Assembly: GCA_965216315.1 (NCBI GenBank)
Contig: CBDCFN010000016.1
Span: 1,216,001 to 1,280,000 of the forward strand
Length of the DNA stretch: 64,000 nucleotides
Direction: 5' to 3'
DNA from: a bacterium
GTDB taxonomy: Bacteria; UBA10199; 2-02-FULL-50-16; JAJFLM01
Shown piece by piece: positions 53,894-57,947 of this stretch (within the stretch, counting starts at the first letter, position 1; each line of letters starts with the position of its first letter). A program made the position numbers and the translations under genes. The notes beneath the pieces were generated by a model that worked only from the letters and a program-made list of their open reading frames with translations, searched no databases and was not told where the DNA came from.

Positions 53894-55093
53894 ATGTCAA
53901 CGCTGATGAAACAGAACTCATGGAAAGTGTCACCTGAGTTGCTTGATGAAATGCTTCAGCTGCGCCGTCATCTCCATAAATATCCTGAACTCAGTGGCGG
54001 TGAGGGTAAGACCGCTGAAGCCATTAAAGCACAACTCGATAAGCGACGGATAAATTATCGCGACGGGCTAGCCGGGCATGGTATTGTAGCTGAAATTCCC
54101 GGGAATAAATCAGGTCCAGCCATCGCGCTCCGAGCCGATATGGATGCGTTGCCGATTCATGAAGAAACGGGCCTATCGTTCGCTTCGGTACATAAAAATG
54201 TCATGCATGCCTGTGGCCATGATGGTCATAGTAGCATGCTGCTGGGAGCGGCGGCGCTGCTGCAGGAGGAGAAAGCGTCGCTGGAGTATCCGGTGCGCTT
54301 CATCTGGCAGCCTGCCGAAGAAAAGGCGACAGGCGCCCAGGAACTTATCAAAGCAGGTGTGCTCGATAATGTAGGATTGATTTTTTCCGGGCATATCGAT
54401 CCGCGTTATCCAAGCGGTAGTCTTGTCATTACAGAAGGCCCCGTTAATGCATCCAGCGACCAATTTGTTATCTCTATTCGTGGACAGCAGGGACATGGAG
54501 CGCGTCCGCACGAAGCGACGGATGCGATTGTTATAGGCAGCCTGCTGGTAACGGCTATTCAAACGATTATTTCCAGAGAAATTGATCCTGCCGAAGCCTC
54601 GGTGATTTCTGTCGGTGAATTTAACGCCGGCTCTGCACCCAATGTCATTGCAGGTGAGGCACAGCTAACGGGTACCGTACGTGCTCAGGAAACTACAGTG
54701 AGAAAAAAACTCGAACTGGCGCTCGAACGTGTTTGTAAAGCCGTCGCGAATCTGCACGGGTCTTCAATTGAATTTCGTCTCTACCCCCGAACGCCACCTC
54801 TTATTAATAGTCCTGAAATGACTGAATTAGCTAGAGCGGCGGCGCTTAAAGTGGTCGACAATGATAAAATCGTTCCATTACTTCAGGCCAATATGGGTGG
54901 GGAAGACTTTGCCTATTATCTTGAAAAAGTTCCCGGTGCTTATATTCGCTTTGGAGCTAGAATAGATGGCGGCGATTATTCTCCGGCACACTCCAACCGT
55001 TTTGATTTCGATGAAGCTGCATTGGAAGTAGGAGCTCTGTGGTTTGCCAGCGTGGCTTTTTTAGGAGCTCAGTATCTTGCCCAACAAAGCTAG
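53894..55093 (+). CDS. M20D amidohydrolase
   Basis: RRHLHKYPELS, LRADMDALP, MHACGHDGH, QPAEE, GGEDF. Confidence 0.92.
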   Translation: MSTLMKQNSWKVSPELLDEMLQLRRHLHKYPELSGGEGKTAEAIKAQLDKRRINYRDGLAGHGIVAEIPGNKSGPAIALRADMDALPIHEETGLSFASVHKNVMHACGHDGHSSMLLGAAALLQEEKASLEYPVRFIWQPAEEKATGAQELIKAGVLDNVGLIFSGHIDPRYPSGSLVITEGPVNASSDQFVISIRGQQGHGARPHEATDAIVIGSLLVTAIQTIISREIDPAEASVISVGEFNAGSAPNVIAGEAQLTGTVRAQETTVRKKLELALERVCKAVANLHGSSIEFRLYPRTPPLINSPEMTELARAAALKVVDNDKIVPLLQANMGGEDFAYYLEKVPGAYIRFGARIDGGDYSPAHSNRFDFDEAALEVGALWFASVAFLGAQYLAQQS

Positions 55094-56270
55094 TCATAGC
55101 TGTACGGTACGTACCGCTAACGAACTCGATATTCCAGGCATTCAGAAGATGTTCCATGACAGCTATGGAGATGACTATCCTTATCACGGTTTCTATGAGG
55201 CAGCTTGGATCAAGCATGCCCTCTATAACGATAACATTGCGATGTTTGTGGCGGAAGACCCAGCGACCCATGAACTGCTTGGTTCGGCGTCTTTGGACTT
55301 TAGTGTGGGTGCCTTTACAGACCTGTTAGCAGAATTTGGGCGCTTGGTTGTTACCCCGGAAGCTCGTTGTCGCGGGGTTGGGCATGCTTTGATGAAAAAG
55401 CGTGTAGAGTATGTGGAGGACAAAATCCATATCGGAATCGTTGAGAACAGAGTCGTTCATCCCTATTCGCAAATGATTTCTCACGCTCATGGCTTTACGC
55501 CGGTGGGATTTCTTCCCCTGAAACACCTTTTCCACGCGCGTGAGAGTTTGAGCCTATTTGTGCGCTATTTTCAAGACGCCCTGAATTATCGAAAACCCGT
55601 TCCTCGGGTCATACCTGAAGTTCAACAATTGGCACAACTTGCGCTGGCAAGTCTGGGAATTGATAACGACCTTGAGGTTATGAGCGGCGCGCAACCCTAT
55701 ACACATCGAGTCCAGTTTGATTTAGAAGAACTTAAAAATAGTGTCTTGCCGGCGCTACTGCATATTGAGCGGGGAAGGCTGAGCCATCGGGAAGTCTTTG
55801 GGCCGGCGCGGCTTCATTATGGTTTTTTTCGCCTTCATGCCCGTCATGCCCAATATTTTATTGCGAGAGATCAGGCCCCTAAAGGTGAAATTGCGGGGGC
55901 CATTGGCTTTATTCGCGATAAACTGGAGAAAAGCCTTCGCATCTTCGAGCTGATAACCCCAAACGATGATGCCATTTATTTTCTACTCAAATCCTTATTG
56001 GATAAATGCCAGCAGCAGTGGGGACTGGAATATATCGAGGTTGATGTCAGCGCTTACGCGCCAAGGCTGCAACAGACCTTAATCGAGCTCGGTTTTGTCC
56101 CCGCCGCCTATCTTCCGGCCATGGCCTTCCATCAAATCGAACGGGTGGATGTAATCAAGATGTGTCGATTGCTCGTCCCGCTCGATGTTGGTGGGATTCA
56201 GCTAGCAAAGGACAATCAACGACAAATTGCAGACCTGGTAATTCAATCTATTCATGAAAAAATCCGCTAA
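55077..56270 (+). CDS. GNAT family acyltransferase (probably two GNAT-like domains)
   Basis: EFGRLVVTPEARCRGVGHALM; second module near the C-terminus (IEVDVSAY...LGFVP). Confidence 0.8.
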   Translation: MPNKASHSCTVRTANELDIPGIQKMFHDSYGDDYPYHGFYEAAWIKHALYNDNIAMFVAEDPATHELLGSASLDFSVGAFTDLLAEFGRLVVTPEARCRGVGHALMKKRVEYVEDKIHIGIVENRVVHPYSQMISHAHGFTPVGFLPLKHLFHARESLSLFVRYFQDALNYRKPVPRVIPEVQQLAQLALASLGIDNDLEVMSGAQPYTHRVQFDLEELKNSVLPALLHIERGRLSHREVFGPARLHYGFFRLHARHAQYFIARDQAPKGEIAGAIGFIRDKLEKSLRIFELITPNDDAIYFLLKSLLDKCQQQWGLEYIEVDVSAYAPRLQQTLIELGFVPAAYLPAMAFHQIERVDVIKMCRLLVPLDVGGIQLAKDNQRQIADLVIQSIHEKIR

Positions 56271-56295: not shown

Positions 56296-56317
56296 CTTTA
56301 TTGAGTCATTATATATG

Positions 56318-56390
<73 letters not shown>

Positions 56391-56394
56391 GTAA

Positions 56395-56470
56395 TAGGGG
56401 CTAGCGTCGCCCCCTCCGGTCGGCAAAGCCGCCGGAGCCTCCCCCTCTCGTTCGCATTACTCACTAGGGG
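56395..56470. repeat. 76-bp interspersed element, copy 1
   Basis: 70/76 identical to the reverse complement of 58900-58975. Confidence 0.85.
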
Positions 56471-56537
56471 GATTTCCTCAAAGGAGACAGCTACTTAAGG
56501 GATTAGGGTGGGGTTTGGCAAGGGCTTTTTGTTGGAC

Positions 56538-56647
56538 TTATCCACAGCTCGTGCCCAGGAAAAAATCGGCAAAGAATCAAATCAAGTAAAATCAACTTTC
56601 TGCTGCCTGTGATTATGTTGAAAAAGTTATCCACAGCTTGTGGATAA
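56538..56647. promoter_or_regulatory. DnaA box cluster
   Basis: TTATCCACA at 56538 and 56627 and TGTGGATAA at 56639, followed by an AT-rich tract. Confidence 0.75.
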
Positions 56648-56800
56648 AAAAAGTAGCAATTTTTTTATAAGTAATTTCAGTGGATTAAAAAAATGTGAAT
56701 TTTGGCTATTGTCGATTTTGCTTTTTCGTAGTTTAACCCTGTTCATCAAGACGACATAGACATATAATCCTTGATAAAGCTTTTAGCAGGATCTTTGAAA

Positions 56801-57378
56801 TTCAATCTATCGTTTAGGGAAGAACCTGAACTGCCACTTGTTGGCGTCAGTAAGTGACTTCGAATCAATTCGAATCTGCAGCCAAGAGCTTTTCGTGAGT
56901 TAAGCTCTCTGTGGAGGGTCCGGAACCAGGGTTGACGATGTCGCTGAACAGCAAGTCGTAAGCAGGCACAAAGGTCATAATGGAGGAAGCAGCCGAAAGG
57001 TGACTTCACATCCGTTATCTCGATAAACTCTAAAGACCAGCGAGCGAGTATTCTTCGGGAGACTCAGGAGCAAGGTCATAAGAGTGGGGATCTGGAAGCA
57101 GAGACTAAGAGATGATGGAAAAAGCCATAGAGGCCCCTGGAAACCCCATAAGAGGACAGACAAGCAAAGTTTCCGGATCCAAGGAGGCAGAACTTGTCGG
57201 CGCCCATGGACGGCAAAAATCCCTGAAGCTGAGGCGGCCGGGTTAGAACTTGGGTATCCGCTCAAGCCGCTCGGAGAAACCCAACAGCAAGAGGGAATGG
57301 GAGCCTGAAAGGGCCACCGCCAACCATGAGTGTTACGCCACTCTAGAGGGGAGTAAGTTCTCTGAACGATAGATTGAA
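56801..57378 (+). ncRNA. Large (~580 nt) highly structured non-coding RNA candidate of unknown class
   Basis: 21-bp closing helix 56801-56821/57358-57378; many nested helices with G-U pairs; GAAA, GUGA and cUUCGg loops; no credible ORF; terminator directly after. Confidence 0.8.
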
Positions 57379-57419
57379 CGCAAAAGCCCGAATCGAAAGG
57401 TTCGGGCTTTTGTGCGTTT
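57377..57419 (+). terminator. Intrinsic terminator of the large RNA
   Basis: AAAAGCCCGAATC-GAAA-GGTTCGGGCTTTT-GTGCGTTT. Confidence 0.85.
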
Positions 57420-57437
57420 ATCAAAGGAGCTTTCCAA

Positions 57438-57531
57438 TTAAATCCCTCCTAGCCTCCCTTTACAAAGGGAGGGACATCAAGTGGCAACCGTTATCTCCCC
57501 CTTTTGTAAAGGGGGACTAAGGGGGATTTAA
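57438..57531. repeat. REPIN-like inverted pair of palindromic units
   Basis: AAATCCCTCCTAGCCTCCCTTTACAAAGGGAGG and its inverted near-copy CCCCCTTTTGTAAAGGGGGACTAAGGGGGATTT. Confidence 0.75.
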
Positions 57532-57947
57532 GCTGAGAGCGCCTTCGCCCTACGATACCAGGTAAAGGCGATGCCGAGTATTCCCATCAGGAGAGCATAG
57601 ACGAGAATACCGAGGAAGAGGACGCCGGATTGGGCGCCCTTGACGAGCTCGGAGTTCGGATCCTTAAAACAGACGGCGCAGGCCCATACAGAGCGACTCA
57701 GTAGCGGTGAAAACATGACGCTCAGGACAGTCAGGGCGAGGACCGCCTCGGGGAGCCGACGCATCTTTTGGCGGAACCAATAGCCGTAGAATGCCAATAC
57801 GACGATCATGACGACAGCGATGACACCGAGCCAAAGATGATTCGCGTCGCCGCTGCTCCGGTAACCCTGGAGACCCCACAGTGCGAGGATAATCGCGACG
57901 GTCAAGGAGCAACAGATAAAGAAGATGTGAAAGGCTTTAAGATTCAT
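57528..57947 (-). CDS. Membrane accessory protein of the oxidase operon with a CxxC motif
   Basis: About four TM segments; ACAVCFKDP; last gene of the cox operon. Confidence 0.6.
   Translation of the reverse strand: MNLKAFHIFFICCSLTVAIILALWGLQGYRSSGDANHLWLGVIAVVMIVVLAFYGYWFRQKMRRLPEAVLALTVLSVMFSPLLSRSVWACAVCFKDPNSELVKGAQSGVLFLGILVYALLMGILGIAFTWYRRAKALSA

Follow-up and report, generated by a model that had tools for sequence, protein, structure and literature searches.

A stretch of 64,000 nucleotides from a bacterium of the UBA10199 lineage (GTDB Bacteria; UBA10199; 2-02-FULL-50-16; JAJFLM01; NCBI GenBank assembly GCA_965216315.1, contig CBDCFN010000016.1, positions 1,216,001 to 1,280,000 of the forward strand), hereafter the window, carries on its + strand the core of a stand-alone non-coding RNA (ncRNA) gene of ~580 nt (56801-57378), which has its own terminator, sits in changing neighbourhoods and encodes a new class of large ornate RNA outside Rfam. 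Three multi-helix domains are closed by a 21-bp stem and held by compensatory changes across the family. With a probability of roughly 0.6, we read the locus as an ncRNA gene whose transcription would depend on the replication initiator DnaA and whose product would assemble through a pairing loop and be processed at its closing stem. The parts of the locus are listed below in window positions.

56538-56546, + strand: distal DnaA box, a perfect 9-mer TTATCCACA, 263 nt before the RNA core
56627-56647, no strand: palindromic DnaA-box pair TTATCCACA-GCT-TGTGGATAA, 174 to 154 nt before the RNA core
56709-56737, + strand: putative promoter, TTGTCG (56709-56714), 17-nt spacer and TTTAAC (56732-56737), with conserved TTG and TTTAA columns
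56744-56800, + strand: leader with a predicted start, ending in a conserved CTCTTTGAAAA-type motif, here GATCTTTGAAA (56790-56800)
56801-56821, + strand: 5′ arm of the closing stem P1; the consensus part, 56807-56813 / 57366-57372, is changed on both sides in 6 of 7 pairs
56824-56967, + strand: 5′ domain, helices 2-8 of the alignment consensus, including a C-GNRA-G hairpin (56886-56907)
56916-56927, + strand: hairpin GG-[GUCCGGAA]-CC, showing the self-complementary hexamer UCCGGA (56919-56924), a proposed symmetric kissing loop
56973-57135, + strand: central domain, helices 9-18 of the alignment consensus, with GAAA, UUCG and GGAAGC-type hairpins
57137-57141, + strand: linker CUGGA, proposed pseudoknot partner of the hairpin loop UCCAA (57178-57182)
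57144-57351, + strand: 3′ domain, helices 19-28, the best-conserved part and the source of covariance model R1
57358-57378, + strand: 3′ arm of P1, read from the sequence, the minimum-energy fold and the consensus
57382-57419, + strand: intrinsic terminator, with an A tract, GCCCGAA (57386-57392), an 8-nt loop, TTCGGGC (57401-57407) and a T run

The closing stem P1 is formed by TTCAATCTATCGTTTAGGGAA (56801-56821) and TTCTCTGAACGATAGATTGAA (57358-57378), just as an initial annotation made from the sequence had described it, with 21 bp and two G-U pairs, and the minimum-energy fold leaves none of these 21 positions unpaired. The + strand folds at -214.8 kcal/mol vs -175.7 +/- 5.9 for dinucleotide shuffles (z -6.66; 0/100 as good), and the - strand gives a z of -3.10 with 1/100 shuffles as good. 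Evidence for selection on the fold comes from an alignment of 43 distinct copies, termed A1, which has 827 columns of which 76 are invariant and holds many conserved unpaired stretches. RNAalifold returned 137 pairs on A1, 111 of them with at least one sequence changed on both sides, and a fuller consensus comprises 170 pairs in 28 helices. Over the 170 pairs and 43 copies, 91.0% of cells are paired vs 75.8% in shuffled alignments, 137 pairs show double changes vs 94.1, and the covariation score is 0.498 vs 0.219, none of the three values being reached in 500 shuffles. When the partners are slid by 1-3 columns, 37.9-46.6% of cells pair and the score does not exceed 0.143, and the top 24 column pairs by mutual information all lie within the consensus structure. 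Both-side changes affect 5/5, 10/10, 17/17, 7/7 and 7/9 pairs of helices 2, 3, 5, 6 and 7, respectively, and the single pair 57011/57119 occurs as UA in 22 rows, GC in 13, GU in 7 and CG in one. The linker at 57137-57141 can form 5 pairs with the loop at 57178-57182 (90% of cells paired, both-side changes at 2 of them, UA/AU and UA/GC/AU), which gives moderate support to a pseudoknot there, and pairing within one molecule or between two would fit alike.

Ten helices had been listed in the initial annotation, and eight of them stand in the covariation-supported consensus on the + strand. These eight are the closing stem, AGAGCTT/AAGCTCT with its GUGA loop (56886-56907), GCC-GAAA-GGT (56992-57001), TCCGTTATCTC/GAGATGATGGA (57011-57021 / 57109-57119), ACTCT..GACC/GGTC..AGAGT (57028-57038 / 57074-57084), the TTCG hairpin (57047-57065), GACAAG/CTTGTC (57159-57164 / 57193-57198) and GCCT-GAAA-GGGC (57300-57318). 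The remaining two had been drawn in the wrong register. Instead of CCAGGG at 56926 pairing with CCCTGG at 57135, the consensus uses the CC at 56926-27 to close the GG-loop-CC hairpin and gives GGGTTG the partner 56866-56871; likewise, GCGGC at 57234 is invariant while its supposed partner GCCGC at 57266 varies, and the register that covaries is 57235-57243 / 57269-57276. A repeat of AAGGTCATAA, also pointed out there, is found at 56971 and 57064, and the terminator that it placed directly after the element is the hairpin and T run at 57382-57419. A simple terminator scan did not list this hairpin, weak terminator-like 'Thr_leader' matches fall on it in a permissive Rfam scan, and terminator-type hairpins occur at the equivalent place in the single-copy homologs.

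The - strand opposite the element holds an open reading frame (ORF) of 149 codons (56975-57424), which we rejected as a protein gene on finding neither a Pfam match nor a codon signal. Column identities by codon phase are 0.748/0.762/0.755, and only 33/640 indel runs are a multiple of 3. The purine content of the + strand is 59%, thus stop codons are rare on the - strand and the open frame there is explained. Taken together, the homologs, the covariation, the lack of coding signal, the terminator of its own and the unconserved neighbours make this a stand-alone structured RNA of a class absent from Rfam, as had been proposed. That proposal had come with its own tests, namely a covariance scan of Rfam for novelty, a collection of homologs with a covariation test, and a search for codon-type conservation as the observation that would speak against an RNA: no family matched the window or 20 homolog loci, compensatory changes in the 43-copy alignment lie far above shuffles, and the codon phases are equal with indels not in threes.

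At gathering scores, the 4227 models of Rfam 15 found only tRNA in the whole window, and a permissive scan of 56400-57600 (E up to 10) returned nothing credible inside the element, the sole row there being NEAT1_2 on the - strand at chance level (14.4 bits, E 3.2). Scanned at E up to 0.1, the 20 homolog loci matched no family either, and the models of ROOL, GOLLD and OLE (RF01071) gave no row in the window, in the permissive scan or in those loci. RNase P RNA was rejected as an identity, since RF00010 and RF00011 are absent from the element and RF00010 matches elsewhere in the genome (G000:C15:160125-160568, 224.6 bits); group I/II introns, transfer-messenger RNA (tmRNA), 6S RNA, signal recognition particle RNA and riboswitches were rejected as no Rfam model of them matched. 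The initial annotation, which had seen no complete signature of RNase P, tmRNA, rRNA or group I/II introns, is borne out by the absence of any credible match inside the element. Full-text literature searches and the discovery papers, supplements aside, hold no description of such an RNA. Some microRNA-like Rfam rows are explained by a dispersed repeat: a long imperfect hairpin at 57433-57535, between the RNA terminator and the end of the - strand gene, lies outside the RNA family, and contigs C15 and C16 carry ~10 near-full-length copies of it (79-92% identity) as well as many half copies.

A further feature of the fold is the loop of the invariant hairpin at 56916-56927. A palindrome of at least 6 nt stands at this loop in 42/62 homolog rows, in 7 different words: UCCGGA in 32 rows, UCAUGA in 4, GCCAUGGC in 2, and UGGCCA, ACCGGU, GGCCAUGGCC and CGGCCG in one row each. 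Of the other rows, 13 keep a CCGG core only, 4 have 4-nt palindromes (weak when taken alone) and 3 have none, one of these being without the region. In A1 all 3 intra-loop pairs change on both sides and 95.3% of their cells are paired. Neighbouring bases within a single loop are unable to form pairs among themselves, therefore the covariation points to pairing between two molecules, and we infer from it, and from analogy with known RNAs, a loop-to-loop symmetric dimer or a larger assembly. A different partner for the loop, the conserved CGGAG segment, showed no covariation with UCCGG when A1 was inspected by eye. According to the proposed mechanism, two RNAs would pair via the palindromic hexamer into a homodimer or a larger RNA assembly, as OLE, ROOL and GOLLD do.

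Symmetric kissing-loop dimerisation is the function of the HIV-1 dimerisation initiation site, which likewise presents a six-base self-complementary word in a hairpin loop; unlike it, the element is a bacterial chromosomal RNA, and the dimer here is proposed from sequence. In the bacterial case, a cryo-electron microscopy (cryo-EM) study describes a symmetric dimer of OLE in which one contact is a kissing loop with a covarying palindrome, GGCC changing to GAUC or AGCU (PMC12286853). There, palindrome covariation at OLE L9.3 and GOLLD L21a was taken as intermolecular pairing, and ROOL and GOLLD form homo-oligomers via kissing loops and A-minor contacts (PMC12286853). The initial annotation had compared the element in size with OLE, ROOL and GOLLD, a comparison that proves apt for complexity too and gains support from a palindrome-preserving loop like the OLE and GOLLD bridges. 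With OLE the element shares a length of ~600 nt, many conserved helices together with conserved unpaired stretches, a chromosomal stand-alone gene and the same palindrome-covariation signature in a loop (56919-56924) as at the OLE kissing loop. Unlike OLE, which lies next to the oap genes in Bacillota, it matches no model, has no conserved neighbour and belongs to a small candidate phylum; its DnaA-box promoter also differs, none being reported for OLE in the texts consulted. ROOL and GOLLD resemble it in size class and ornate fold. They are often phage-borne and near tRNA islands (PMC12286853), whereas the element has no phage or plasmid match, adjoins a tRNA in 1/29 contexts and matches neither model. 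The RNA thus combines a length above 500 nt, a multi-domain covarying fold, a stand-alone gene and a palindrome-preserving loop, which makes it a probable member of the large ornate homo-oligomeric RNAs, a kind and not a homologous family.

The same loop might instead be a site for a protein, or a site at the DNA level, in an RNA that acts as a monomer and scaffolds a ribonucleoprotein. Several proteins are known to act together with OLE, and most rows carry the one word UCCGGA. A protein site should, however, keep its sequence, whereas the word here changes in paired positions only and gives six other palindromes, and no protein gene is conserved next to the RNA. We consider a monomeric scaffold quite improbable and favour the loop-paired assembly.

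Processing at the closing stem is made plausible by tandem copies. The window's own genome holds one copy (BLAST with the 619-base query), while 5/37 carrier genomes have arrays of 2-4 copies, for example a four-unit locus (G018), and metagenome contigs also hold arrays. Units stand head-to-tail ~620 nt apart, each with its own closing stem and a preceding CTCTTT-AAAA motif, and a terminator follows only the last unit, which indicates one precursor cut into units. The 21-bp stem suggests RNase III as the most likely enzyme; the long closing stem would be the processing site that frees unit RNAs from the leader and from arrays.

A rival reading is an RNA that cuts itself out of its leader and arrays, perhaps forming circles, with the conserved purine-rich joints as the active site instead of packing contacts. 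Its size, the 76 invariant columns and the many conserved unpaired stretches would suit a ribozyme, as would the head-to-tail units with a CTCTTTGAAAA-type motif before each. Yet no self-cleaving ribozyme or intron model of Rfam matches, a closing stem of 21 bp is the usual sort of substrate for RNase III, and no circle joints were seen in contigs, though contigs are poor evidence on this point. We would give self-processing only a slim chance, and prefer cleavage at the closing stem by a cellular enzyme.

A further handle lies upstream. TTATCCACA, which we take to be the consensus DnaA box, stands as a perfect distal box and again within the palindromic pair. The homolog loci share a common order. 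A single box is followed after 87-98 nt by the palindromic pair; next come a AATCATTTCA block, an A/T tract and the TTG and TTTAA elements, which we take as -35 and -10; a short leader, which contains a small hairpin, then runs up to CTCTTTGAAAA and the closing stem. In the window an A/T-rich tract and a conserved AATCATTTCA-like block (~56673-56682) likewise precede the putative promoter, and the CTCTTTGAAAA-type motif is also present before the inner units of tandem arrays. Between -330 and -100, at least one relaxed box occurs in 32/35 loci, a perfect box in 22/35 and two or more boxes in 20/35, vs 0/35, 0/33 and 0/38 in control stretches further upstream, downstream and inside the RNA. The box arrangement stands at fixed distances upstream across the family. 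Only 47 perfect boxes exist in the 2.96 Mb of the genome, and the RNA locus is its only cluster of at least three relaxed boxes within 300 nt. A second place in the genome (G000:C16:1951081-1951511) has three perfect boxes within 500 nt.

The spot before the dnaA start is the classical place for DnaA autoregulation. In the window's genome it is occupied by the palindrome TTATCCACA-GT-TGTGGATAA with a 2-nt spacer (L205 ~2361-2385, G000:C15), 4 nt before the probable dnaA ATG; this ATG opens a typical DnaA N-terminus, and the longest ORF as called, from a GTG at 2472, probably extends past the real start. The element thus resembles an autoregulated dnaA promoter in that the identical palindromic pair of boxes precedes dnaA in the same genome. 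Transcription would start from a promoter ~60-90 nt upstream of the RNA and depend on box-bound DnaA, in which case the amount of RNA made would reflect the state of the replication initiator. The promoter reading comes from an alignment of 25 upstream regions; a sigma-70 consensus scan gave no promoter match at 56709-56737. A perfect TATAAT at 56763-56768, in a leader insertion specific to the window's genome, is a possible second or alternative -10.

DnaA-box clusters outside the origin are known from E. coli datA/DARS and from B. subtilis. The boxes at the RNA locus resemble those clusters in being tight, fixed TTATCCACA sites away from the origin and differ from them in belonging to a large structured RNA gene. 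One may therefore ask if the DNA is primary, with the box triad titrating or recycling DnaA as datA/DARS do in E. coli and the RNA gene being a passenger or a tuner of occupancy; the function of the RNA would then be unrelated to replication. The densest consensus-box cluster of the genome would suit such a role, as would the fixed spacing including an inverted pair, the position of the boxes well upstream of the core promoter and the likeness to datA/DARS. The boxes, however, accompany the RNA gene wherever it stands, in unrelated neighbourhoods and in divergent subfamilies, which argues for one functional unit; structural selection on the RNA is strong, and the locus has no conserved position relative to origin or terminus. 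We regard a primarily DnaA-titrating locus as unlikely, and keep to DnaA-dependent transcription of the RNA.

The locus was also considered as a replication origin and rejected, as contig C15 carries both dnaA and the GC-skew minimum (326 kb) and the RNA is on C16. On that contig a distance of 47 kb separates the RNA (1.2728 Mb) from the skew maximum (1.32 Mb); a conserved terminus-proximal position found no support, the RNA of another genome (G038) lying ~500 kb from the sole sign change seen in its sampled skew. The sampled skew of a third genome (G027) was too noisy to read.

Homologs were sought in the small candidate phylum of the host, for which 93 genomes were searched and whose class equals the whole phylum in this set. 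BLAST with the 619 bases gave matches of ~70% identity in 14/61 relatives and in 20/93 genomes of the phylum, and a profile search found the BLAST matches to be full-length. R1, the covariance model of the 3′ domain (233 positions, 50 pairs; 231.7 bits on the window's own 3′ domain), matched 37/93 phylum genomes and 25/63 of the high-quality ones, adding whole families (6/6, 4/4, 3/3 and 2/2). Divergent members are also ~600 nt long and keep the ATCGTTTAGGG...CCTAAACGAT closing stem. A motif scan of metagenome contigs led to 34 fetched loci of which 15 are homologs. Among the matches listed from a loose pattern scan of genome contigs, which says little on distribution, only L052-055, L093 and L108-110 are homologs, and the record titles of homologs among those listed read 'uncultured Nitrospirales bacterium', 'bacterium isolate UBA10199-1' and 'bacterium isolate SMAG_U1372'. 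Variation within the family is modular: most of the 5′ domain is absent from one locus (L225, in G011), and a metagenome copy (L167) carries a 28-nt extra hairpin within the 57165-57169 loop region (A1 columns 451-478).

The surroundings of the gene are those of ordinary chromosomal DNA. Upstream (53894-56270 and 56300-56500) the + strand encodes an M20 peptidase and a protein with a GNAT domain, followed by a tRNA-Glu gene on the - strand, while the next gene 3′ of the RNA is on the opposite strand and a cytochrome oxidase operon is on the other strand. The tRNA-Glu had caught the eye of the initial annotation and is indeed present (56317-56390, - strand, ~410 nt upstream), but it is no trait of the family: in the 29 contexts scanned, on 28 distinct contigs, a tRNA comes this close in the window's own genome only, and three other contexts have one at a distance of ~2 kb or more. 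Close relatives aside, the neighbourhoods have no flanking gene in common, and the largest cluster spans 4/28 contexts. A phage or plasmid origin was rejected after no match was found in phage and plasmid collections.

A mobile or phage-borne RNA, a cis-acting leader or a mis-called - strand gene (ORF 56975-57424) have to be weighed against these data. The patchy spread in the phylum, a distant relative in another phylum and the 149-codon frame can be cited for one or other of them. We rate them as very improbable: apart from the missing phage and plasmid matches, the single viral-contig motif match proved not to be a homolog, housekeeping genes surround the RNA (M20 peptidase, GNAT, cytochrome oxidase) and the genome holds a single copy; the RNA stops at its terminator, and the gene that comes after lies on the opposite strand; and the frame shows no codon periodicity, has indels not in threes and is explained by the 59% purine.

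Outside the phylum, R1 found one of 151 genomes in the phylum of a Gemmatimonadales metagenome-assembled genome (35.5 bits, E 8.4e-8). BLAST with that region in 401 genomes gave three more with 1.1-1.5 kb matches at 72-90% identity and eight with short matches only, and the four long-match genomes (G202, G570, G434 and G469; L247-L250) have R1 matches at the same place of 42.7, 35.5, 27.6 and 19.4 bits. All four loci show a TTGACA-17-TATAAT-type promoter, DnaA-like boxes ~235 nt upstream of the promoter and a strong terminator ~1.2 kb downstream. A second weak R1-like match 370-430 nt later (6.2-14 bits) and repeated CTCTGAAGGGGA-type motifs suggest an internal duplication of the 3′ domain, and the locus is a probable enlarged relative of 1.2 kb. 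R1 gave 0/151 in a Nitrospirota-type sample, 0/151 in a Myxococcota-type sample and 0/10 in single genomes, searches that used strict filters and a one-phylum model and so do not show absence; two weak hits in a Flavobacteriales-type sample of 151 were rejected as false since they lie in coding sequence.

Public sequencing runs lend supportive evidence, not proof, of expression. Part of the stretch occurs in 20 runs, of which 12 are metatranscriptomes, and contigs of four metatranscriptome runs from four studies fall on 56825-57359. The longest pieces from RNA libraries measure 417 nt (10 differences, depth 77), 394 nt and 383 nt. The flanks 56400-56795 and 57368-57455 have no contig cover in those four runs, and contigs start at 56825 (X6) and 56827 (X7), but as these are contigs with relatives mixed in, they do not fix the ends of the RNA.

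Several points weigh against the combined reading of DnaA-dependent transcription, loop-paired assembly and stem processing. At the loop, UCCGGA accounts for 32/62 rows, 13 rows keep only CCGG, 4-nt palindromes are common by chance, and the alignment of the most divergent rows is uncertain there; the oligomer itself is a prediction from loop covariation. Upstream, DnaA binding is likewise predicted, and a palindromic operator could serve a different regulator that binds as a dimer; with the boxes placed upstream of the core promoter, their position does not give the direction of control, and this promoter is weak by consensus and was missed by the scan. R1 finds nothing in 56/93 phylum genomes, with whole families empty (0/13, 0/5, 0/4 and 0/4), so the RNA is dispensable there or too diverged. 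No protein partner or neighbour is conserved, which leaves function to be suggested by analogy, and the RNA-library contigs are assembled, many come from relatives, and such libraries can contain DNA.

As for its role, we would guess at a particle present in large amounts that acts as a scaffold or by sequestration, with its level linked to the replication cycle. To our knowledge, few bacterial RNAs of such size and complexity exist, and each of them (ribosome, RNase P, group II introns, OLE, ROOL, GOLLD) is a machine or an unexpected assembly. The present family comes with handles that orphan classes mostly lack, namely a DnaA-linked control element, a loop that predicts a dimer and tandem arrays that predict processing, and a covariance model with more than 60 sequences is available for structure work. 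Our literature searches found no published large structured RNA tied to DnaA boxes or the replication cycle, and if the DnaA link is real, this would be a large structured RNA tied to that cycle. More tentatively, and less likely than not, the RNA may be one branch of a wider set of DnaA-wired large structured RNAs across phyla; in this reading it would self-assemble via the loop into an RNA-only or RNA-rich particle whose amount tracks, or feeds back on, replication initiation; the breadth so far is the host phylum and the probable 1.2-kb Gemmatimonadota-type relative. Were this so, an ornate RNA would add a further, new layer to the control of the cell cycle.

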